Assembly (NCBI GenBank): GCA_965203865.1
Contig: OZ241916.1
Coordinates: 2,872,738-2,936,737, forward strand
DNA: 64,000 nucleotides
Direction: 5' to 3'
Source: Arenicellales bacterium
GTDB lineage: Bacteria; Pseudomonadota; Gammaproteobacteria; Arenicellales; JAJDZL01
Below the pieces are notes generated by a model that did not search any database, was not told the origin of the DNA, and was given only the letters and a program-made list of their open reading frames with translations. Positions 53,508 through 62,814 of the stretch are shown piece by piece. The position numbers and the translations under genes were made by a program. Position 1 is the first letter of the stretch; every line of letters begins with the position of its first letter.

Positions 53508-54101
53508 TCATTCGTTTTTCAGGCGAGCCTGCTTTCCAAGGTAGCCGCCGTGGTGACGAAGTCCGTAGTCGTGTCTTGTGATTCCTTTTTGCGTCATTAA
53601 AACAAGTGCAAGCGCGTCGGCTATGGCATTCATTACTGCAATACTGGCCGTAGGAGTCAGCCCCAATGGGCATGGCTCCTGAATCACACCCATTTCCAGA
53701 ATCAGGTCGCAGTGCTGACGCAACTCGGAATCCGGGTGAGATGTAATACCGATTACTTTTTCCAATCCAATATGCTTGCCAAGTTCAAGCATTTCAATCA
53801 CTTCTCGAGTTTTGCCGCTCGTGGAAAACGCAACCATGCAATCCTTTTCAGAGATTACCCCGAGATCCCCGTGAGCCGCTTCGCCAGGGTGAATATATAC
53901 AGCAGGCGTGCCGGTGGAGCATAGTGTCACAGCAAATTTTTTTGCTGCAAGACCCGCCTTCCCCATACCGGTTGACAGAATTTTACCTTGGCAATTCTCC
54001 AGAATTTCAACTGCCTTCACAAAAGAGTCGTTGACTTCCACTGAATTTATGGCTTTGGCCTCAGAGTCAAGTATTTTCTTGATTTGGTTACTTGTCTTCA
54101 T
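53508..54101 (-). CDS. SIS-domain sugar-phosphate isomerase (KpsF/GutQ-like or hexulose-6-P isomerase-like, no CBS domains)
   Basis: 197-aa ORF. GKILSTGMGKAGLAAKKFAVTLCSTGTPAVYIHPGEAAHGDLG and AFSTSGKTRE are SIS hallmarks. Confidence 0.85.
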   Translation of the reverse strand: MKTSNQIKKILDSEAKAINSVEVNDSFVKAVEILENCQGKILSTGMGKAGLAAKKFAVTLCSTGTPAVYIHPGEAAHGDLGVISEKDCMVAFSTSGKTREVIEMLELGKHIGLEKVIGITSHPDSELRQHCDLILEMGVIQEPCPLGLTPTASIAVMNAIADALALVLMTQKGITRHDYGLRHHGGYLGKQARLKNE

Positions 54102-54365
54102 TCGATTTGAATCAGTTTACAGATTGTCATTTAACCTTGAGTACACTCGCTAATCAATTTAATTCAAATTCATCGGCAGTACTGAACTATGATTGCAGCA
54201 CACCGCTGCGAGTCAAAAGGCTATTGTAGTTTTTAGAATTGTAATTCAACAGGTACGTGGGGATGCCGATGAATAGAATATTTGTCATTTTTACTCAAGC
54301 ATCAAGTTTTGCAATAAGTTTCAAAGTGAATGTGCAGAACCCCTCGTATTTCTCATTCGGATGCT
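53942..54365. repeat. 424-bp direct repeat, copy 1 (SIS gene 5' end plus its upstream region)
   Basis: Hand alignment to 56238..56661 with a constant 2296-nt offset. Only scattered mismatches. Confidence 0.85.
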
Positions 54366-54415
54366 GGTCTCAGAATACTTTGATATATTGTATTGCCAAT
54401 TTCAAAATTATCTTT

Positions 54416-54598
54416 CATGCATCTAACCATAAGTAAGGAAAATCCGAATCGGCACATGCTCAACAGTGGTCTGCAGAGTTCATTCCAGCAACTGAGGTTT
54501 CCATTAGCAGCTATTAAAGGGGAAAACAAACTCGCCAGCGTGCCAATCTGGACCGTTTTGTTGTATTATTCGACAACCCTTTAATAGTTAGAGGCATG
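54416..54598. mobile_element. MITE-like element, copy A (183 bp)
   Basis: Terminal inverted repeats CATGCATCTAACCAT / ATAGTTAGAGGCATG (13 of 15 matched). Roughly 70% identical to copy B, with perfectly conserved internal blocks such as GGGGAAAACAAACTCGCCAGC. The flanking 8-mers match only partly (TTATCTTT vs TTATATAA). Confidence 0.6.
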
Positions 54599-54646
54599 TT
54601 ATATAATTTGAATGCAGCTAGATTTCCAACGGATGGAGGTGATTTG

Positions 54647-55750
54647 ATGCAACGTGTTGAATATCTAAAGATAAGCCTAGATGAAGCCCGCTTTGACAAG
54701 GGCAATATACCCTCGGACGTTCAAAAATTACTTAATTGTGTCAGAGATTTTTTTGGGGAAATTGCCAAGTGGAGATTTGAATTGGACAATCTGGACAAGG
54801 ATATTGCCTCAGAAAAAGAATTTTTAGAATTAATTAGAAATCTGGAATCTGCACAATCAAATCAAGAAAGTCTTGAAAAGAATGAAAATGAATTTTCCAC
54901 CTGTTTTGAGTTGGCTAAGAGAGACTTTATTGAAATAATAAACTCGGCAAATCGAAATAAAGTTGTAGAAAGTGTAGTTCCATTTGAAATTTTAAAATTG
55001 TTCGAGAAAGAAAGAAGTTTTCGTGTAGATAAAACAATAAAACTTGAATTTCATCAAAATTCTGAGCCAATTCTATTCACGAGAGAGGCATATCTGAGAA
55101 TTGTTGAGGTATTGTCAAATGATTTCAAGTTTGGAGAATTTTTAATTCGGTGTACAGTATCGAAAATTGACAAAGACAGTATGACCATTCATTTACTTTT
55201 TCCAAACGGAAAAAGACTGGTTGGAGCAATATCCCATCGACATCTGGAAGTTTTAATCAATGGTAAAAAGGGCAACGAGATCAAACTGAATGTAATGGTT
55301 GAAGGTTCAGGGATGTACAATGCTGACGGCGAATTAATTCGTGTTGAATCAATAAAAGAAATTACTCCGTTTGACCTATCTGATGTTCTAACCCGCCTGG
55401 ATGAGTTTCGTGATTTGAAAAAAGGCTGGCTAGACGGGGAAGAAGGCGTACCACCAAGTTTCGAAGGTTTGGATTGGCTGTCATCGTTGATTAAGAACAA
55501 ATTTCTGAGCGACGTGCCATTACCCTATACTTATCCCAAACCCGATGGTGGAATACAGCTAGAATGGTCGTTTCCTAATAGTATTGATGCAGACTTGGAA
55601 GTGGATTTAATTTCTCATACTGGTTTATGGACAAATTACGATATGTCAAACAATTGCAACCCCACTACACAAAAACTTGCACTGGACGAAAATAATGACT
55701 GGACATGGTTGATAGAAAAAATCAAGTCACTGAGTGAGGTTCGCGTTTGA
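54647..55750 (+). CDS. hypothetical protein: coiled-coil N-terminal half plus a C-terminal domain shared with ORF 57117..57563
   Basis: The ORF-track start at 54596 lies inside the MITE terminus. The ATG at 54647 (MQRVEYLK) has a GGAGG SD 8 nt upstream. 367 aa. Confidence 0.7.
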   Translation: MQRVEYLKISLDEARFDKGNIPSDVQKLLNCVRDFFGEIAKWRFELDNLDKDIASEKEFLELIRNLESAQSNQESLEKNENEFSTCFELAKRDFIEIINSANRNKVVESVVPFEILKLFEKERSFRVDKTIKLEFHQNSEPILFTREAYLRIVEVLSNDFKFGEFLIRCTVSKIDKDSMTIHLLFPNGKRLVGAISHRHLEVLINGKKGNEIKLNVMVEGSGMYNADGELIRVESIKEITPFDLSDVLTRLDEFRDLKKGWLDGEEGVPPSFEGLDWLSSLIKNKFLSDVPLPYTYPKPDGGIQLEWSFPNSIDADLEVDLISHTGLWTNYDMSNNCNPTTQKLALDENNDWTWLIEKIKSLSEVRV

Positions 55751-56121
55751 ATAACCAAACCTTGCTTCTCAGGCAAGTGCATCCAAATTTTATAGACAAG
55801 GGCATTATTACCAGACAAGTTTTTCAACCCACAAGAACAAATCCTCAACTATCCGTTTATGATGGCGACCAAATTAATGCTGAAGATTCCTGGATACACT
55901 TCACACAAAAATTACATCGCCTCTCTAGGGGCGTGGTCGCAGTATCTGTTGAAGAGTGCAGTTCGATAGAAGCACTTGAAGTTAAACCTGACCCGGGCGA
56001 ATTTCCAGAACATGCGTTAATTTCCTTTGTTGAAAAATTTTCCAGAAGCGAATTGAAGAGAATTTCGACATTTCTTCAGAGTAAAGCACATCAACGAGGT
56101 TGGCTATACAAGCCTCAGTAG
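55747..56121 (+). CDS. hypothetical 124-aa protein (candidate toxin/effector partner)
   Basis: A TTG start overlaps the upstream stop (GTTTGAAT). The sequence is MNNQTLLLRQVHPNFIDKGIITRQVFQPT...LSVYDG...EFPEHALISF, and no family could be assigned. Confidence 0.6.
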   Translation: MNNQTLLLRQVHPNFIDKGIITRQVFQPTRTNPQLSVYDGDQINAEDSWIHFTQKLHRLSRGVVAVSVEECSSIEALEVKPDPGEFPEHALISFVEKFSRSELKRISTFLQSKAHQRGWLYKPQ

Positions 56122-56237
56122 TTCTTACTTACATGCTTTGGTAACCTGTTTCTGAACTTCGTCACGTAATACCCATTATTGATGAGTTTGTGTTCCGCTT
56201 CAATCGCCGATTCTGGGAACCCCAGTTGCTGGACCGA

Positions 56238-56397
56238 TTGCTGCGAGACCCGCCTTCCCCATACCGGTTGACAGAATTTTACCTCGGCAATTCTCCAGAA
56301 TTTCAACTGCCTTCACAAAAGAGTCGTTGACTTCCACTGAATTTATGGCTTTGGCCTCAGAGTCAAGTATTTTCTTGATTTGGTTACTTGTCTTCAT
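56238..56397 (-). pseudogene. truncated duplicate of the SIS gene 5' end (first ~53 codons)
   Basis: MKTSNQIKKILDSEAKAINSVEVNDSFVKAVEILENC.GKILSTGMGKAGLAA is identical to 53508..54101 except for one residue. Homology then breaks. Confidence 0.85.
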
Positions 56398-56661
56398 TCG
56401 ATTTGAATCAGTTTACAGATTGTCATTTAACCTTGAGTACACTCGCTAATCAATTTAATTCAGATTCTATCGGCAGTACTGAACTATGGTTGCAGCACAC
56501 CGCTGCGAGTCAAAAGGCTATTGTAGTTTTTAGAATTGTAATTCAACAGGTACGTGGGGATGCCGATGAATAGAATATTTGTCATTTTTACTCAAGCATC
56601 AAGTTTTGCAATAAGTTTCAAAGTGAATGTGCAAAACCCCCGCATTTCTCATTCGGATGCT
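56238..56661. repeat. 424-bp direct repeat, copy 2
   Basis: See copy 1. Confidence 0.85.
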
Positions 56662-56856
56662 CAATTCAGCGAGCTGTCGTTGATTTCAATCTATGCGGCG
56701 ATGGAGCTGGTTGAGAAAAAACTGGACCGGCGAATCAATCCGACCCTTTACAAGCCTGCTGACTTTCGAGAACGAATGTCGAGAAAGGCAGAATTTGTTG
56801 TCCGTGTCCTGAATCGCCCGCATATCATTCTTGTGGGCACTCTCAATGACTCGTAA
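56662..56856 (+). pseudogene. 3' fragment of a nucleotidyltransferase-type (MNT-like) antitoxin/regulator gene
   Basis: The tail RRINPTLYKPADFRERMSRKAEFVVRVLNRPHIILVG matches the conserved C-terminus I recall for this family (..NP.vY...EF...........F...vl..Pki.l.G). The N-terminal NTase motif is missing because homology breaks at the repeat boundary. Confidence 0.45.
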
Positions 56857-57076
56857 GGAACTCGACAATCTTGTACAGATTGGGCAATTAAAGCAGGCAA
56901 GTGTTACAAAGCGGAACTTTTCAACTTTGATTCATTCGAACTGGTCCACGTTTATAGTCCCAATGACTATAGATTATAATAATGATAGAAGTAAGTCATT
57001 ATTGGACCAGAAGCCTATATTTGACTTTTTGCAAATTGACAAAAAATTATTCTGGAAAGAGATTTGTTTACTATAA
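56846..57076 (+). pseudogene. probable truncated HEPN-like partner of the MNT relic
   Basis: MTRKELDNLVQIGQLKQASVTKRNFSTLIHS overlaps the upstream stop, as in MNT/HEPN pairs. The ORF then degenerates into AT-rich sequence and ends early. Confidence 0.3.
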
Positions 57077-57116
57077 ATCGGGGAAGTGCCTGTATTCATG
57101 CAGTACTGACCACAAA

Positions 57117-57563
57117 ATGCGAATCATCATGAGAAAAAACCAGGACAGTTTGCCTGCTACCGACAACCCGGTACTTGGACCAAGGACACTTGCTCCACCG
57201 CCAAAGCTATCGCCTACTCAACAACTGCTTATGAAATTGGAAGCTTATCAGAACATGCCAGAAGACGAGCGATGGCCACCTGCGAAGTGGCCTGAAGAGA
57301 AAGCATTTGAAGATGCCTATAACTTCATCCAGCACCTTGATCTCAATTCAGTTCCTATGCCGATTATCACCTTGGCTGATGATGGCGAGGTTAATTTTTT
57401 TTGGAAGAATGCCTCTGTCCATGTTGACCTTGGTTTCTATGGAACAGGTACTTACTCCTACTTTGCCTGCCATACAGACGGGCGCAAATTTATTGGCGAA
57501 GTTGAACCGGCTCGGAAAGGATTACCTTCCGAGGTGATTCAGCTATTCCGAGAGGTCAAATAA
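57117..57563 (+). CDS. hypothetical protein carrying the same C-terminal domain as 54647..55750
   Basis: The likely start is the internal MRIIMRKNQ of the 193-aa ORF. The shared pattern is W...P....F.......L.....P.P......DG.....W......D (SVPMPIITLADDGEVNFFW vs DVPLPYTYPKPDGGIQLEW). Confidence 0.6.
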   Translation: MRIIMRKNQDSLPATDNPVLGPRTLAPPPKLSPTQQLLMKLEAYQNMPEDERWPPAKWPEEKAFEDAYNFIQHLDLNSVPMPIITLADDGEVNFFWKNASVHVDLGFYGTGTYSYFACHTDGRKFIGEVEPARKGLPSEVIQLFREVK

Positions 57564-57599
57564 ACTGGTTAAAGCTTACGTATGGCAGATTTAACGAAA

Positions 57600-57784
57600 C
57601 ATGCCTCTAACTATAAGTAAGGAAAGCCAGAATCAGCACATGAACAACTGCGGTTTGCGGCATTCGTTCCGGCCGCTGAGGGTTTCAGTAGCGGATATTG
57701 AAGGGGAAAACAAACTCGCCAGCATACTCATTCAGACCGTTTCGTTGTATGATTCGACAACCCTTTATAATAGTTATAGGCATG
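57600..57784. mobile_element. MITE-like element, copy B (185 bp) with an 8-bp target-site duplication
   Basis: Terminal inverted repeats CATGCCTCTAACTAT / ATAGTTATAGGCATG (14 of 15 matched). It is flanked on both sides by TAACGAAA (57592..57599 and 57785..57792). Confidence 0.7.
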
Positions 57785-58116
57785 TAACGAAAAATCAGCA
57801 TTGTGTCACTCAGTAGGCCGGATTCATTCTCTAGCCGCAAGAATCATTTTAAAATGCCGGTAGGTGAATGACAGTTCAGCAGGTTTGGTTTAGCTGAAGT
57901 GGCGTAAAAGGTGGCATGAAGGAAGGTTGGTTTCCAGAGATATAGAGCTGTACATTTTTGTCCCTGTTCCAAGTATTTACGCCTGCAATCAAACCCTCAA
58001 AATCATTAATTTCACCTCAATAAAGAACATGACATCTTGATTTTCTTGTCCTCAAGGTATGAAAATTTTGTTAAACTAAGTTGTTGAGCAATCCGTTGGA
58101 CTAAAAGATTTCTATT

Positions 58117-60309
58117 ATGCCGACTTCAAACACAGCATTGAAGGGCAATGCAGGGCAATTTGCTACTGAATTGCAACTTGCTTCAGTGAACCAAGAAGCC
58201 TTGCCAATCCATATTCACCCGAGAGTCTTCGCAGCACTGGGGGCAGACCTTGTTACAGATGATGTTGTCGCCGTTGTAGAGCTGGTAAAAAACTCATATG
58301 ATGCGTTTGCACATAATGTTTGGGTAAGATTTACCGAAGATTCGAATGGAAACTTGGAATTGGAAATTGAAGATGATGGCCACGGTATGTCCAGAGAGAG
58401 CATCGAAAACTCATGGTTTGTAGTTGCTACACCACTTAAGCAGCAAAACCCTTATGTAAAAAAAGGCAATAAAACTCGCCGGGTAGTAGGTGAAAAGGGA
58501 TTGGGTCGTCTATCTGCTGCAAGACTCGGAACAAAATTGTTGATGCAAACAAAGGCGGATCAAAACCCTTGCTGGGAGGTTGTGGTTGACTGGGATACAC
58601 TGTTCCGACACGATCGAATGGAAGACTGTAGTCTTGAAATAAGGAAATTGCCTGATGATTCCCGGGTTGCAAGAGCAGGCACATATATAAAAATATCTAG
58701 TCTGAGAAGCATTTGGAAAGACAAGCAAATTGCAAATCTTGAAAACGGATTAAGGCGAATTATAAATCCCTTGTTTAAATCTGATGATTTCAAGATTCAT
58801 TTTTTGAAGCCAGGCTCCACAGAATTAGAGAAAATAGAAATTACTTCACATGACTTTCTTGAAAACCCCAAATACAGAATATATGGGCACTCCGATAAAT
58901 ATGGTAATGTTAATTGGAAGTACGAGTACAGTTCAATTGATTGCAACAAGAGTCGTGAGTATGAATCTAAATTGTATTGGGAACAGATCTTCAATAGCAT
59001 TCAAGAAAGCGATAAAGACCACTTATCTTCAGAATCTGTTCAATGTGGACCATTCTCCTTTGAAGTGCGCGCATGGGATCTGCAAGCAGAAGATACTGAA
59101 GAAATCGCAGACAAATATGAAATCCGGAAAAACGAAATTCGAAAATCCATCAGTGCATTCAAAGGTATTTCTGTTTACCGAGACAATGTATTGATATTGC
59201 CCAAAACAGAAAATTCAAGAGATTGGCTTGGACTTGATGCTCGAAGAATTGCCAGAGTCGGCACACGCTTAAGTACATCTCAAATTGTTGGCTATGTATC
59301 TATCTCTAGTGAAGACAATCCTGGAATAAAAGATACAAGCGACAGAGAACGACTTGCAGATTGCGTTGAAGTAGAAAAGTTTCGAGAAATTTTACGTGCT
59401 ATTGTAGGGCTATTTGAAGTTGAAAGAGATGAAGATAGAATCAAGCGGGAAATTGAAAAACCCATGAAGGATTTATTTGCACAAATAGAACCTCAAGAAT
59501 TATTCACAAATATAAATAGCAAGTTAAAAGAAGGTGCTGACTCATCGGAAGTTATTCAATTGATGGATCAGATGAGGGATTCATTGGCTGAGACGCGTAA
59601 TACGATTCAATCTCGTTTTGTTTACTATAGTAGATTGGCAACAATTGGTACCATTGCGTTTTATTTGATTCACGAAATACGAAACAAAACATTCGTAATT
59701 GGTGGGCTAATAAGAGTATTGGAAGGAACTGATATTTATTTGAATAACACAGATATAAAAAAGGCATGTATAAGAGCGAGGGAGTCAATTCATTCATTGG
59801 AGAGGTTGGCGGATACTTTTGCTCCGTTAGCTAGTCGAAATTTTAGACGTCGTGCCAGAAGTTCGGTGCTAGAAGAGAGAATCAAAAGTTGTATTGAACT
59901 CCAGCAAATATCACTTGAATCAAAGCATATTGTATGCGTAGTTCCAGATTCAATTACAAAGGTGGCGGCAGATCCTGGGGAACTTGACACAATAATATTG
60001 AATTTAATAACAAACTCAGAATACTGGCTTTGTCAAATTCCAAAGGCACAAAGAAAATTGATTTTTGAGTGTGATATTCAAAACAGTGGAAAGTTTGTTC
60101 GTATTACTGTAAGCGATACAGGCCCAGGTATAGAAAAAGAAGATTTGGAGAAAGTGTTTCTACCTGGGGTCACGCGAAAACCAAATGGTCTTGGAATGGG
60201 CCTTACGGTTGCGGCAGAGCTGGCTTCGATTTACAACGGAAACATTCACACAATACATACCAACGGGAATGGTGCAGTTTTTGTGTTTGATCTGCCTCTT
60301 TTGAAATAA
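58117..60309 (+). CDS. cytoplasmic MORC-like GHKL ATPase module fused to a histidine-kinase transmitter (HisKA-like plus a second HATPase_c)
   Basis: 730-aa ORF. First GHKL: VVELVKNSYDAF, EIEDDGHGMS, GEKGLGRLSA. A mid-region (GISVYRDNVLILPK...DWLGLDARR...SDRERL) follows. H-box YLIHEIRNKT. Second GHKL: ILNLITNSEYW, VSDTGPGIE, GLGMGLTVA. No hydrophobic TM segment was seen by eye. Confidence 0.85.
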   Translation: MPTSNTALKGNAGQFATELQLASVNQEALPIHIHPRVFAALGADLVTDDVVAVVELVKNSYDAFAHNVWVRFTEDSNGNLELEIEDDGHGMSRESIENSWFVVATPLKQQNPYVKKGNKTRRVVGEKGLGRLSAARLGTKLLMQTKADQNPCWEVVVDWDTLFRHDRMEDCSLEIRKLPDDSRVARAGTYIKISSLRSIWKDKQIANLENGLRRIINPLFKSDDFKIHFLKPGSTELEKIEITSHDFLENPKYRIYGHSDKYGNVNWKYEYSSIDCNKSREYESKLYWEQIFNSIQESDKDHLSSESVQCGPFSFEVRAWDLQAEDTEEIADKYEIRKNEIRKSISAFKGISVYRDNVLILPKTENSRDWLGLDARRIARVGTRLSTSQIVGYVSISSEDNPGIKDTSDRERLADCVEVEKFREILRAIVGLFEVERDEDRIKREIEKPMKDLFAQIEPQELFTNINSKLKEGADSSEVIQLMDQMRDSLAETRNTIQSRFVYYSRLATIGTIAFYLIHEIRNKTFVIGGLIRVLEGTDIYLNNTDIKKACIRARESIHSLERLADTFAPLASRNFRRRARSSVLEERIKSCIELQQISLESKHIVCVVPDSITKVAADPGELDTIILNLITNSEYWLCQIPKAQRKLIFECDIQNSGKFVRITVSDTGPGIEKEDLEKVFLPGVTRKPNGLGMGLTVAAELASIYNGNIHTIHTNGNGAVFVFDLPLLK

Positions 60310-60337
60310 GCACAATTTCTGCTTTGAGTGTGTTATT

Positions 60338-61492
60338 GTGAAAATACTTGTTATAGAAGATGAGGACCATGTAATTGATACAATTCAGGATCTTTTGTCG
60401 AAGGAAGAACCTGCATGGAATCTTGAAGGAATATCTTTCAAATGTGCAGAAAAAAAGCTTGTGTCGTTTCGACCAGATGTTGTAATACTTGATATATTTG
60501 ATGGTGAAATTGATCCGAGTAACGCAGCCGGCGGCAAGTTACACAATTTTGTTTGGAACGAACATTTCTGCCCAATTGTAGTATTTTCTGCGAGACCCTA
60601 TCAAACTGAAATCAAGGATGATAACCATCCATTTAGGCGATTTGTAGAAAAAAGTAGTGATAGTTATGATGAGCTTGTAAATATTCTACGAGAATTTCAA
60701 CCCCACATTAAGTCAATAAACGTTACATTCTCTTACATACAAAAGAATTTGTATGGTGTCTTACGAGACGTGGCACCTCAAATTTTTCAAGAAATTGATG
60801 ATGATAATGGTGCTGAACGTCATGAGGCAATTAAAAGAGCAAGCAGACGGAGATTGGCTGCGCTAATGGATGAAAGTCCAAATGGAGATGCTAAGCTTGT
60901 CGGCTGGGAACAATATATATTTCCTCCAATAAACGAGGATTGCTTGCTAGGAGATGTAATAATCAAATCTGGCGGGTCGAATTCAGAGCCGTCCGATTTT
61001 CGAATCATTTTGTCTCCTTCATGCGACCTTGTCAAACGGCCAAAACCGAAAATCAAAGAGATTCTGGTTGCAAAGTGCTGTTCAGTTGCAGATGGCTTAT
61101 ACAAGGCGAACAAAAAGGACATGAAAAAGAATGATAAAAATAAGGAAACTATTGAAGGAATTCTTAGACAAGGTTACATAAATTCTGTTATTCCTTTACC
61201 GAAATTAAAAGGCAAGATTCCTAATATGTTCGCAGATATGAAAGATTTGGAACTTGTGGCATGGGAAAATATCATCGACAAAGAAGAGTCAGGTTCAAGG
61301 GAAGAAATCGGAGACAAAGAAAAATCACAACCAAAATATTATAGAGTTGCCTCGGTTGATAGTCCATTTCGTGAAATGATTTCACAAGTATATCAGTTAG
61401 TTTCGACTAGGCCAGGATTGCCGGAAAGGGACTTTGAATCCTGGGTAAAAGAACTTTCGGAAGAGCCGTGGGGAAAAAATGAAGGCGATTGA
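60338..61492 (+). CDS. response-regulator receiver protein with an unassigned ~260-aa output domain
   Basis: 384-aa ORF with a GTG start. REC motifs: MKILVIEDEDH, phospho-acceptor context RPDVVILDI (Asp52), IVVFSA. The remainder (e.g. FRIILSPSCDLVKRPKPKIKEILVAKC) contains no HTH or enzyme motif I recognise. Confidence 0.8.
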   Translation: MKILVIEDEDHVIDTIQDLLSKEEPAWNLEGISFKCAEKKLVSFRPDVVILDIFDGEIDPSNAAGGKLHNFVWNEHFCPIVVFSARPYQTEIKDDNHPFRRFVEKSSDSYDELVNILREFQPHIKSINVTFSYIQKNLYGVLRDVAPQIFQEIDDDNGAERHEAIKRASRRRLAALMDESPNGDAKLVGWEQYIFPPINEDCLLGDVIIKSGGSNSEPSDFRIILSPSCDLVKRPKPKIKEILVAKCCSVADGLYKANKKDMKKNDKNKETIEGILRQGYINSVIPLPKLKGKIPNMFADMKDLELVAWENIIDKEESGSREEIGDKEKSQPKYYRVASVDSPFREMISQVYQLVSTRPGLPERDFESWVKELSEEPWGKNEGD

Positions 61493-62501
61493 CTTTTTTT
61501 GCGGTGCTGGAGGGTTGACGCGAGGATTGGTGCAATCAGGAATTGACGTGGTTGCAGGTCTTGATATAGATAGTAGTTGCCAAGCTACCTACGAATACAA
61601 CAATAAGGGAATACAATTCATTCGAGAGGATATCAAGAATGTAAACTCAGAATTATTGAAGAATCTTTACTCCGAAAAAGACGTGCTGCTATTTGCGGGA
61701 TGTGCTCCTTGCCAGCCTTTCAGTCATCACAGGAAGAGTAGTCCCAAATCGGATAGCGCGAGACTTCTTAAAGAGTTTGGTAGACTGGTAGTATCGGCAT
61801 TGCCAGATTACGTGTTGATGGAAAATGTACCAGGTATGGCCAAAGTTCTTGGATATAGCACGTATCGAAGATTTTTGAATGCATTGAGAAACTGCAACTA
61901 CAATTGCAAATCAGAAGTTCTAAACGCTAAATACTTCGGTGTTCCCCAAAATCGCAAACGATTGGTTTTGATTGCCGCCAAAAACAAAATTCCAACTCTT
62001 CCTGTGCCTGAATTTGGTGAAAGGGACCAACCATTTCGAACAGTGAGAGATGCTATATCTCATCTACCGAAGATAGTTGCCGGTGAGAACCATGGTTCGG
62101 TGAATAACCATGTAGCTGCAAGCCTTTCCAAATTGAATTTGGAAAGGCTACGATTCACACCATCTGACGGCGGTGACCGAAGGTCGTGGCCCGACCATTT
62201 GAAGCTCCATTGTCACAGCCATGCACATACGGGTTACACTGATGTATATGGTCGTCTGCGTTGGGATGATGTAGCACCAACATTGACCAGTCGGTGCTAC
62301 AGTTTGTCGAATGGGCGTTTTGGACATCCACAGCAAAATCGAGCCATATCTCTTAGAGAAGCAGCAGCCCTTCAGTCATTTCCGGATGACTATGTCTTCT
62401 TTGGGACAAACACAAAAATTGCAAGACAGATTGGTAATGCGGTACCAATCGAATTGGCGAGGCAGCTGGGACGACACCTGCTTACGATTGAATCAAGCTG
62501 A
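61479..62501 (+). CDS. DNA (cytosine-5)-methyltransferase
   Basis: 340-aa ORF overlapping the receiver gene by 14 nt. Motif I DFFCGAGGLTRG, motif IV GCAPCQPFS, motif VI ENVPG, motif VIII QNRKRLVL, motif X GNAVP. Confidence 0.93.
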   Translation: MKAIDFFCGAGGLTRGLVQSGIDVVAGLDIDSSCQATYEYNNKGIQFIREDIKNVNSELLKNLYSEKDVLLFAGCAPCQPFSHHRKSSPKSDSARLLKEFGRLVVSALPDYVLMENVPGMAKVLGYSTYRRFLNALRNCNYNCKSEVLNAKYFGVPQNRKRLVLIAAKNKIPTLPVPEFGERDQPFRTVRDAISHLPKIVAGENHGSVNNHVAASLSKLNLERLRFTPSDGGDRRSWPDHLKLHCHSHAHTGYTDVYGRLRWDDVAPTLTSRCYSLSNGRFGHPQQNRAISLREAAALQSFPDDYVFFGTNTKIARQIGNAVPIELARQLGRHLLTIESS

Positions 62502-62814
62502 CAGACCAGTTCGAAGAGCAATTCTTCGTTGTCTGTTGCTATAGTACGCATTGATCGACTAATGGCAGAAAGGATGCCGGTAGAAAAAGCTTTTGAAATA
62601 GCTAATACAACTCTAGCGGGAACCGCTCCAGGCAAGTTTTTCTATCTTTTGAAGCGAAAATAAATTATATTTTCTAACCATCTGTGCAACAAAATAATTC
62701 AGGCAGCAGGCATTTTTTAAAAAAAGGTTGAAATTTAAATCAGATTCGGTAACAATTCACATTTATTCCCATAATAATAGAAGGAACATCTTTGTTTATT
62801 CACTTAATCTAGCA

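Follow-up and report, generated by a model that had tools for sequence, protein, structure and literature searches.

Bellieny-Rabelo, Pretorius and Moleleki (2021, Genome Biol Evol, PMC8011034), in a study covering 644 regions from 628 strains, described kinases that combine a HATPase_c_3 domain, a DHp domain named HEF_HK and a HATPase_c domain, and that are paired with a receiver-like protein of about 360 residues (Response_reg_2) without any further known domain, the pairs occurring in linkage with C5 methylases and Vsr; the authors suggested that they descend from paraMORC ATPases and exert a signaling control of restriction-modification (R-M), and assigned no effector. An earlier REBASE-based study (Orlowski & Bujnicki 2008, PMC2441816) had listed the putative enzyme R.EcoUTORF4938P as an N-terminal GHKL module joined to a C-terminal histidine-kinase domain and found the same kind of GHKL head in R.HgiDII; neither that paper nor the account of the paraMORC ATPases of R-M systems by Iyer et al. 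(2008, PMC2292703) notes a receiver partner. More recently Ambrosia, an experimentally validated phage-defense system of P. aeruginosa (bioRxiv 10.1101/2025.09.30.679545), was reported to comprise five genes coding for an XRE regulator, an N6-adenine methylase, AbrB (747 aa, with a DefenseFinder annotation as a Type II restriction enzyme in Table S1 of that paper), the receiver protein AbrC (209 aa) and the type IV HNH nuclease AbrD; mutation of the receiver aspartate abolishes its defense. In Detocs (Rousset et al., bioRxiv 10.1101/2023.01.24.525353) a kinase and a receiver-fused toxic effector bring about genuine abortive infection. Here we analyze a three-gene cassette at positions 58117-62501 of a 64,000-nucleotide stretch of DNA from an Arenicellales bacterium (contig OZ241916.1), the whole of which we call the window. 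Its genes, henceforth A, B and C, code respectively for a fusion of GHKL ATPase and histidine kinase, a receiver protein bearing a large output domain and a C5 cytosine DNA methyltransferase. We propose that this cassette is very likely a methylase-linked two-component conflict module of the paraMORC-kinase/receiver family. The original prediction had set its layout apart from those of classical R-M, BREX and DISARM; this is correct insofar as the defining parts of those systems are absent, but the novelty that it implied is not sustained, as the architecture was published in 2021 (PMC8011034), listed in 2008 (PMC2441816) and has a validated relative in Ambrosia (2025). What the present analysis adds is evidence, from 56 loci, that the form with a C5 methylase is self-contained without a separate nuclease, a full-length homology between a clade represented in metagenome-assembled genomes (MAGs) and an enterobacterial clade, and a fold assigned at moderate confidence to the output domain of B, which had been a blank.

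The cassette had been taken for a three-gene operon, and the coordinates of the open reading frames (ORFs) bear this out: A, B and C are co-directional, with a gap of 28 nt between A and B and an overlap of 14 nt between B and C (Table 1). The motifs on which that reading drew all lie at their expected positions. In A these are ELVKNSYDA (at 55), DDGHGM (86), GEKGLGRLS (125), HEIRN (519), NLITNSEYW (629), DTGPGI (667) and GLGMGL (691); in B, VVILDI at 48, which makes the phospho-acceptor aspartate D52; and in C, FCGAGG, PCQPFS, ENV, QNRKR and GNAVP. As had been claimed, A contains two Bergerat modules, the second of them within a bona fide kinase core, and both emerge from Pfam matches (HATPase_c_3, PF13589, residues 51-163, E 5.6e-21; HATPase_c, residues 619-728, E 1.9e-22), from NCBIfam and PDB profiles and from invariant residues. 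The N-terminal module holds E55/N59/D62, the D86xGxG motif and G125-K127-G128-L129-G130, and in 32 homologs E55, N59, D62, D86, G88, G90 and the whole of the last group are invariant. This module matches NF050001, the NCBIfam model of the BbrUII/HgiDII family of restriction enzymes, at positions 5-188 of 659 only (E 5.6e-22), and no Pfam S5/MORC model matched A. The “MORC-like” label first given to A stands in that the protein has a HATPase_c_3-type GHKL module with intact ATP-binding motifs, as in the MORC and paraMORC ATPases, and is better put as paraMORC-type.

The C-terminal core of A gave partial NCBIfam matches to AtoS (E 3e-26) and ZraS (E 1e-21) and PDB profile matches to ZraS, FixL and ThkA with E-values down to 2.7e-22, and its H-box (HEIRN, H519-E520) aligns exactly onto the HEIRN of ZraS. 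It has the DHp histidine together with the N, G1 and G2 boxes expected of a two-component kinase, and the residues H519, E520, N629, N633, D667, G669, G671, G693 and G695 are invariant in the same 32 homologs. The claim that A is free of transmembrane segments is confirmed by a Kyte-Doolittle maximum of 1.51 (19-residue window), with no segment reaching the hydrophobicity of a membrane helix. Between the two modules lies a block of extreme conservation, with the pattern KGISVYRD..LPK..DWLGLD..R..Q.VGYV..DTSDRERL and a column identity of 0.77-0.89 across 50 homologs, which aligns with a stretch of Ambrosia AbrB (GVRIYRDHFRVKPYG..DWLGL..QVVGAVFI..DQTNREGL); we presume it to be the transducer part of the ATPase module. 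The search returned 1481 homologs of A, the closest of which are all about 715-730 aa long with the same two Pfam domains, and which databases name “sensor histidine kinase”, “ATP-binding protein” or “putative Type II restriction enzyme”.

The receiver domain of B, with Asp52 as its phospho-acceptor, had likewise been recognized from the sequence, and structure prediction upholds it. The Pfam match is weak and below threshold (E 0.055); the AlphaFold2 (AF2) model of residues 1-120 nevertheless shows a (beta-alpha)5 fold, with block means of the predicted local distance difference test (pLDDT) mostly at about 86-95 and one block at 77, and its best Foldseek matches in the PDB are receiver domains (template-modeling (TM) scores 0.70-0.78). 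In 130 diverse representatives the acidic pocket (D8, 96%), the phospho-acceptor aspartate (D52, 100%) and the lysine (K105, 98%) that together typify receivers are all conserved. A helical linker follows, whose helices are predicted at low confidence (pLDDT 35-50) and which, with the first residues beyond it, includes positions conserved in at least 92% of the representatives (R171, R172, A175, D178, E191, Y193 and P196). Homologs of B number 430 at E<=1e-3, nearly all of about 370 aa and unnamed, with annotations of “hypothetical” or “response regulator”. Gene C, for its part, carries the canonical 5-methylcytosine (m5C) methyltransferase motifs as stated at the outset, and matches PF00145 (DNA_methylase, E 2.3e-60), TIGR00675 (E 3.5e-46) and the PADLOC model MTase_II (E 4e-90). 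As its target-recognition region is about as conserved across the family as the catalytic motifs, the sequences suggest one specificity common to the C family.

The original prediction had made its reading depend on the recurrence of the three genes together in other genomes, and they do recur. A scan with the B alignment, taking one genome per species, gave 56 loci spread over more than 12 phyla of bacteria, in which neighbors were identified by tblastn with the window proteins; the taxa include Arenicellales, Nitrospirales, Desulfobacterota, Rhodothermales, Chloroflexota, Planctomycetota, Spirochaetota, Acidobacteriota, Latescibacterota, Ignavibacteriota and Alphaproteobacteria, among others. 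A homolog of A ends no more than 200 nt from the start of B in 54 of the 56 loci, the two exceptions being an alignment artefact and a contig end, and of the 53 informative loci (three are cut by contig ends) all but one, 52, carry an m5C methylase. In 43 loci a C-type methylase lies directly 3' of B, and 39 of these are at least 50% identical to C (91% in the closest relative, 50-61% in the others); in nine further loci, mostly from Chloroflexota, a different m5C methylase (35-44% identical) occurs within 7 kb. A vsr gene (encoding a protein of about 168 aa; PF03852, E 6e-30) accompanies the cassette in 31 of the 56 loci, mostly immediately 5' of A, and is absent from the window. Clustering of all the flanking ORFs of the 56 loci showed that beyond A, B and the methylase only Vsr is conserved, with no other nuclease, XRE or HNH protein. 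The closest relative, from an Arenicellales MAG, encodes proteins 80-85% (A), 64-79% (B) and 91% (C) identical to those of the window, and none of the genes flanking the cassette in the window is present in any of the 56 loci, this one included. The unit therefore has the form [vsr]-A-B-C, with Vsr as its sole conserved DNase, and it is a self-contained, horizontally mobile cassette; its low GC content and the PADLOC candidate defense genes beside it, both described below, likewise speak for mobility.

Among the described systems, the cassette is nearest to the HEF_HK/Response_reg_2 pairs, with which it shares a soluble HATPase_c_3-DHp-HATPase_c kinase bearing the His-Glu pair and no membrane segment, an adjacent receiver protein of about 360 aa and a linkage to C5 methylases and, in the 31 relatives but not in the window, to Vsr. 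A is 27% identical over its full length to the kinase of an Enterobacter mori plasmid (E 2e-61), and hhalign aligns the B family, together with its output domain, to a receiver-like family from Klebsiella, Serratia, Aeromonas and Neisseria (340 columns, probability 99.5%, E 1.7e-22); these enterobacterial-type pairs are equated with the 2021 family (OG_4/OG_5) by taxa and architecture only. The window clade differs in its divergence (about 27% identity), in coming mostly from environmental MAGs, and in having the methylase downstream in the window, whereas it is mostly upstream according to PMC8011034. The Pfam models PF19191 (HEF_HK) and PF19192 (Response_reg_2), deposited by the authors of the 2021 study, matched none of the window proteins (E<=10) nor those of Bacillus sp. 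H8-1 and Enterobacter mori, and appeared in none of the 120 listed matches to the Enterobacter mori receiver-like protein, so that the models may be absent from the collection or narrow. No copy in E. coli was found when the DNA of the Enterobacter pair was used as query. With the HgiDII/BbrUII-family enzymes and the paraMORC ATPases of R-M systems (PMC2441816, PMC2292703) the cassette shares the type of ATPase head and the m5C methylase partner, but the likeness ends after that head, and A has neither the C-terminal region of HgiDII nor a nuclease domain.

Ambrosia combines R-M-like and two-component parts in a comparable manner, and AbrB, also a HATPase_c_3 plus HATPase_c protein, is homologous to A (residues 30-416 against the published first 399 residues of AbrB, 28% identity, E 1e-36). 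In contrast to Ambrosia, the operon of the window neither contains nor adjoins an XRE or HNH gene, its methylase is of the C5 instead of the N6 type, and B, which shares with AbrC no more than the general receiver fold, carries a 260-aa output absent from AbrC (no similarity, E 1.6). With Detocs it has in common the logic of a cytoplasmic sensor kinase and of a receiver whose fusion partner would be a toxic effector and not a DNA-binding domain; however, Detocs uses a TPR sensor (DtcA), a buffer receiver (DtcB) and a receiver-PNP ATP-nucleosidase effector (DtcC), and has no methylase, and the window operon has neither a stand-alone receiver gene nor a PNP domain. No PADLOC model matched A at E<=0.01 (in a release assumed to include the Detocs models), and the sole match of B was a faint one of its receiver N-terminus to the candidate PDC-M60B (E 0.0059). 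C matches the PADLOC models DrmMII and DruM, as any C5 methylase would, and no signature protein of BREX (BrxC/PglZ/PglX), DISARM (DrmA/DrmB) or Druantia (DruE) was found among the seven ORFs scanned with PADLOC. Of classical Type II R-M only the methylase is present, with no PD-(D/E)xK, HNH, GIY-YIG or PLD domain in A or B by Pfam, NCBIfam, PADLOC and PDB sequences. Membership in Ambrosia, Detocs, BREX, DISARM and classical Type II R-M was accordingly rejected, the defining parts of each being absent.

We then examined the output domain of B, which had been left unassigned. From 1.84 billion representatives, a profile built on residues 126-384 retrieved 876 at E<=1e-3 and 281 at E<=1e-30; among the 150 best matches listed, the domain lies at about residues 125-365 of proteins of about 370 aa, and is therefore a dedicated receiver-fused family. 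Its hallmarks are D206, the C229-D230 pair (100% conserved), C247, DSPFRE (341-346) and RxGxP (358-362). The AF2 model has a mean pLDDT of 67.5, with 80-93 in the beta core, and the top 50 Foldseek matches in the PDB are all endoribonuclease toxins of the MazF/PemK/YdcE type (E about 2e-3, probability 0.99-1.0, TM score on the target 0.58-0.73); in the viral library BFVD the top matches are annotated as “PemK-like protein” or “endoribonuclease”. As we read it, the order of the predicted elements (strand, strand, short helix, strand, several strands, C-terminal helix) fits the MazF topology plus two extra helices. Based on these matches we propose, with moderate confidence, that the domain adopts the MazF/PemK toxin fold. 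The likeness to the MazF/PemK/Kid/CcdB toxins lies in this predicted fold and in the strand-helix order, whereas the inserted helices, the fusion to a receiver, the lack of an antitoxin gene and the lack of any sequence or profile likeness set the domain apart. It had no match in Pfam, NCBIfam or PADLOC (nor did 24 family members in Pfam), a PDB profile search returned chance matches to MIDEAS alone (E 0.05), and it is not a match to the MazF profile (PF02452), the catalytic Arg/Thr being not recognizably conserved. As the hallmark residues differ and there is no profile signal, we do not call it a member of the MazF family and regard it as probably a MazF/CcdB-like fold of unassigned chemistry. 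A by-eye match of GDV..FRIILSP in B to GDL..HRPAVVLSP in MazF is not supported, in view of the null result of hhalign and the limited conservation of R222, both given below. The earlier statement that the operon has no recognizable nuclease thus holds as regards a DNase fold, and has to be qualified in that the output resembles endoribonuclease toxins of the MazF/PemK type at the fold level only. The ordinary DNA-binding regulator that might have taken the place of an effector is likewise not what was found, but rather a dedicated receiver-fused family with a predicted toxin-type fold.

Gene order, domains, residue conservation, synteny, the lack of any other conserved nuclease and the predicted fold were computed here, and from them we infer every functional step of the model that follows. 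It retains the original idea of a methylase that marks self and a phosphorelay that switches on an effector, which is still the best reading of these genes. C would methylate a fixed cytosine-containing site on host DNA; this marking role is proposed because of its intact motifs, the conserved target-recognition region and the frequent vsr partner. A, as a cytoplasmic dimer, would bind or clamp DNA in an ATP-dependent manner through its GHKL module and middle region, and would report the state of that DNA, most simply unmethylated sites on incoming DNA or the chromosome after loss of the methylase; a role as DNA sensor is suggested by the homology of its head to the HgiDII-type ATPase head and to AbrB. 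The signal would pass via a coiled-coil linker to the kinase core, where H519 would autophosphorylate and the phosphoryl group would be transferred to D52 of B, a chemistry proposed because the catalytic residues are fully conserved. Receiver phosphorylation might then release the C-terminal domain of B, or assemble it by dimerization, into an active toxin, as the receiver-fused effector of Detocs provides a functional precedent. The likely outcome would be growth arrest or abortive infection by RNA cleavage or other toxicity, and not restriction by double-strand DNA cleavage in the classical manner. If the methylase were lost, the effect would be the same, which would amount to addiction behavior. 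In light of this we consider that the cassette probably works as an R-M-like defense or addiction module. That the output of B is the effector we regard as more likely than not, it being the only candidate effector in the cassette; that this effector is an RNase-type toxin is a tentative suggestion, to which we would give less than an even chance. The complete chain, that is, an R-M-like conflict module in which the methylase marks self, the kinase senses DNA and the phosphorelay activates a toxin-like output of B, seems to us evenly poised between right and wrong. Its most specific version, a new R-M mode in which a MORC-like clamp reads methylation and, without cutting the DNA, signals through a His-Asp phosphorelay to a receiver-fused toxin of MazF/CcdB fold with a novel Cys-Asp active site, so that foreign unmethylated DNA or loss of the methylase would set off growth arrest or abortive infection, is unlikely.

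Several observations weigh against this model. The link between A and methylation is its weakest step: A is about equally similar (35-39% identical) in loci with a different methylase family, and its specificity is therefore not visibly coupled to the methylase. Furthermore, one complete locus, from a Thermodesulfobacteriota MAG, lacks both a methylase and vsr in the 7 kb to either side, and an enterobacterial plasmid relative has no methylase within 6 kb. The authors of the Ambrosia study (10.1101/2025.09.30.679545) favor transcriptional control by the receiver protein AbrC, and reporter expression rises on infection. As for the toxin, the MazF-like call derives from one AF2 model of moderate confidence and a marginal Foldseek E-value (about 2e-3), and hhalign comparisons of the output domain, with 24 and then 130 diverse sequences, to a set of MazF sequences entered by hand gave a probability below 1%. 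R222, at first equated with the catalytic arginine of MazF, is less than 90% conserved in the 130 diverse members, and the invariant Cys-Asp pair of B has no counterpart in MazF.

The absence of any other nuclease also allows the output of B to be read as a new DNA endonuclease, the missing R subunit of a true, if unusual, Type II-like system, which A would license by phosphorylation on detecting unmethylated sites; the MazF-like fold call would then be misleading. Proteins of the A type do figure in REBASE and DefenseFinder as putative components of Type II restriction, close linkage with a methylase and Vsr is what one expects of R-M, and the invariant acidic residues D178, E191, D206, D230, D341 and E346 could bind metal. 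Nevertheless, B is unlike any known nuclease fold or family by Pfam, NCBIfam, PADLOC and PDB sequences, it lacks a D...(D/E)xK, HNH or GIY-YIG pattern, and the sole structural matches of its output are to toxins of the RNase or gyrase-poison type, such that we consider this phospho-gated restriction unlikely. Distinctly unlikely, in our estimation, is that A and B form a regulatory two-component system that merely controls the methylase or an unlinked R-M or defense system. Such signaling control of R-M was proposed in PMC8011034, and the rise in Ambrosia reporter expression and the assignment of transcriptional control to AbrC speak for it, but B gave no match to a helix-turn-helix or other DNA-binding domain and its output is unrelated to AbrC. 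Moreover, no other conserved gene that could be regulated travels with the cassette, which moves as a unit, and the overlap of B and C argues for their co-translation rather than control of a separate promoter.

Alternatively, A itself could be the restriction enzyme, with a cryptic nuclease in its middle region and B as an accessory modulator: HgiDII-type enzymes join the same GHKL head to an unassigned catalytic part (PMC2441816), and the highly conserved middle block of A is rich in Asp, Glu and Arg (D369, D374, D406, D409 and E411). This is improbable given that the match to NF050001 ends at residue 217, that the middle block is common to AbrB, whose system has an HNH nuclease of its own, and that the remainder of A is linker and kinase core, which leave little space for a nuclease domain. 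Finally, a MutL-like, methylation-coupled module for DNA repair or epigenetic signaling with Dcm-type methylation and Vsr, outside any conflict, would accord with the vsr gene 5' of A in 31 of the 56 loci and with the place of the GHKL module in the MutL/MORC radiation, but is very improbable in view of the varied genomic contexts, patchy distribution over phyla and atypical GC content of the cassette, its position beside candidate defense genes, the presence of Vsr with many ordinary m5C R-M systems, and a toxin-like output that is hard to square with repair.

If the reading as a methylase-linked conflict module with a phosphorelay-activated effector is correct, it would show how a histidine kinase can sense DNA in the cytoplasm by way of a MORC/MutL-type ATPase, add a methylation-gated signaling branch to R-M biology and define a new toxin-type output of response regulators. 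The most specific version given above, if true, would moreover be the first instance in which an epigenetic distinction of self from non-self is coupled to a two-component output, and would supply a function for about 2,000 uncharacterized receiver proteins across bacteria. The family is large, with 876 cluster representatives of the output domain and a sister family of more than 1,200 proteins, and is spread over many phyla. Due to the generic annotations of A and B, these cassettes are missed or mis-called as ordinary R-M.

Table 1. Genes, domains and neighboring features of the cassette; positions refer to the window unless a locus or plasmid is named
Feature	Position (nt)	Strand	Basis or remark
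Gene A	58117-60309	+	730 aa, cytoplasmic paraMORC-type GHKL ATPase fused to histidine-kinase core
A residues 33-217, N-terminal Bergerat ATP-binding module	58213-58767	+	NF050001, PF13589
A residues 341-420, best-conserved middle block	59137-59376	+	column conservation, 50 homologs
A residues 494-728, histidine-kinase core (DHp and catalytic ATP-binding domain)	59596-60300	+	NCBIfam, PDB profiles
A H519, DHp phospho-histidine	59671-59673	+	
Gene B	60338-61492	+	384 aa, GTG start backed by homolog alignment
B residues 1-120, receiver domain	60338-60697	+	AF2, Foldseek, residue conservation
B D52, phospho-acceptor	60491-60493	+	
B residues 121-194, helical linker	60698-60919	+	conserved RRRLAAxMD and WEQYxxPP motifs
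B residues 195-365, output domain, predicted MazF/PemK-like fold	60920-61432	+	AF2 and Foldseek
Gene C	61479-62501	+	340 aa, C5 cytosine DNA methyltransferase
Terminator-like hairpin	62512-62528	+	11 nt past the C stop codon; consensus match only
SIS-domain gene	53508-54101	-	
Direct repeat of about 400 nt, two copies	53942-54343; 56238-56640		99% identity
Truncated copy of the SIS-domain gene	56200-56397		65 aa
Element of about 200 nt, two direct copies	54380-54600; 57564-57784		about 80% identity; just 5' of PDC-M32A and about 350 nt 5' of A
Element of about 200 nt, degenerate inverted partial copy	56160-56260		between the two direct copies
PDC-M32A and PDC-M32B	54596-56121		overlapping genes, 384 and 124 aa
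ORF with partial PDC-M05A match	56554-56856		100 aa
ORF directly 5' of the operon	56982-57563		193 aa
REN-SRE match	58025-58059	-	Rfam
GHKL-like protein of about 800 aa in Chloroflexota loci	L015:1346-3781; L016:1339-3771; L024:9308-11707; L039:9298-11697; L040:9299-11690		
Distant A-like/B-like pair and neighbors, L057	Bacillus sp. H8-1 plasmid CP095861, 1133-10926		mobilizable plasmid

In the window the operon has a GC content of 37-40%, as against 46-50% in the upstream flank, whose genes include a histone-deacetylase-like gene, a racemase and the SIS-domain gene. Downstream lie trxA and then rho, in agreement with the placement of the operon directly upstream of this pair in the original prediction. 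The hairpin 3' of C probably marks the end of the operon; the number of terminator-like hairpins is not above the shuffled expectation, and a promoter scan likewise found sites no more numerous than in shuffled sequence. Near the operon PADLOC recognizes the candidate defense pair PDC-M32A (E 6e-63) and PDC-M32B (E 2e-41), and the operon consequently sits in a small defense island of low GC content (36-41%).

Variants of the gene neighborhood were observed in some of the other loci. In five from Chloroflexota, A and B together with the different m5C methylase are accompanied by a protein of about 800 aa with GHKL-like motifs (TELCTNMVDA, DNGEGQ) and no Pfam match, which may be a second, separate R-M partner of the GHKL type. 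The locus L008 likewise has two GHKL genes, the additional A-like one lying next to the methylase and on the other strand. The A-B pair of the methylase-free Thermodesulfobacteriota locus (L005) has purH directly upstream and a 515-aa ORF without a Pfam match downstream. A distant A-like/B-like pair on a Bacillus plasmid (L057) has as neighbors a dcm gene and genes for a site-specific integrase, a small helix-turn-helix protein and a hypothetical protein of 364 aa, and thus the wider family also travels on plasmids.

Within the island of the window, the direct repeat of about 400 nt duplicates the 5' end and the upstream region of the SIS-domain gene, and this duplication has left the truncated copy of that gene; the two repeat copies flank PDC-M32A/B, as if the pair had come by a recent insertion or duplication. 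The element of about 200 nt has a 23-nt core with two sites only in the window, against none expected; it had no Rfam match, and may mark the boundaries of cassettes or carry a shared promoter. An Rfam scan of the island gave a single match, to REN-SRE (30.8 bits, with a gathering score of 41), a family of mammalian elements, which is almost certainly due to chance. The ORF directly 5' of the operon is without a counterpart in any of the 56 related loci and was matched by no model of Pfam, NCBIfam or PADLOC. The 100-aa ORF is similar to the PADLOC candidate PDC-M05A over the last 60 residues of the latter only (E 8e-14), and is probably the remnant of another defense gene.

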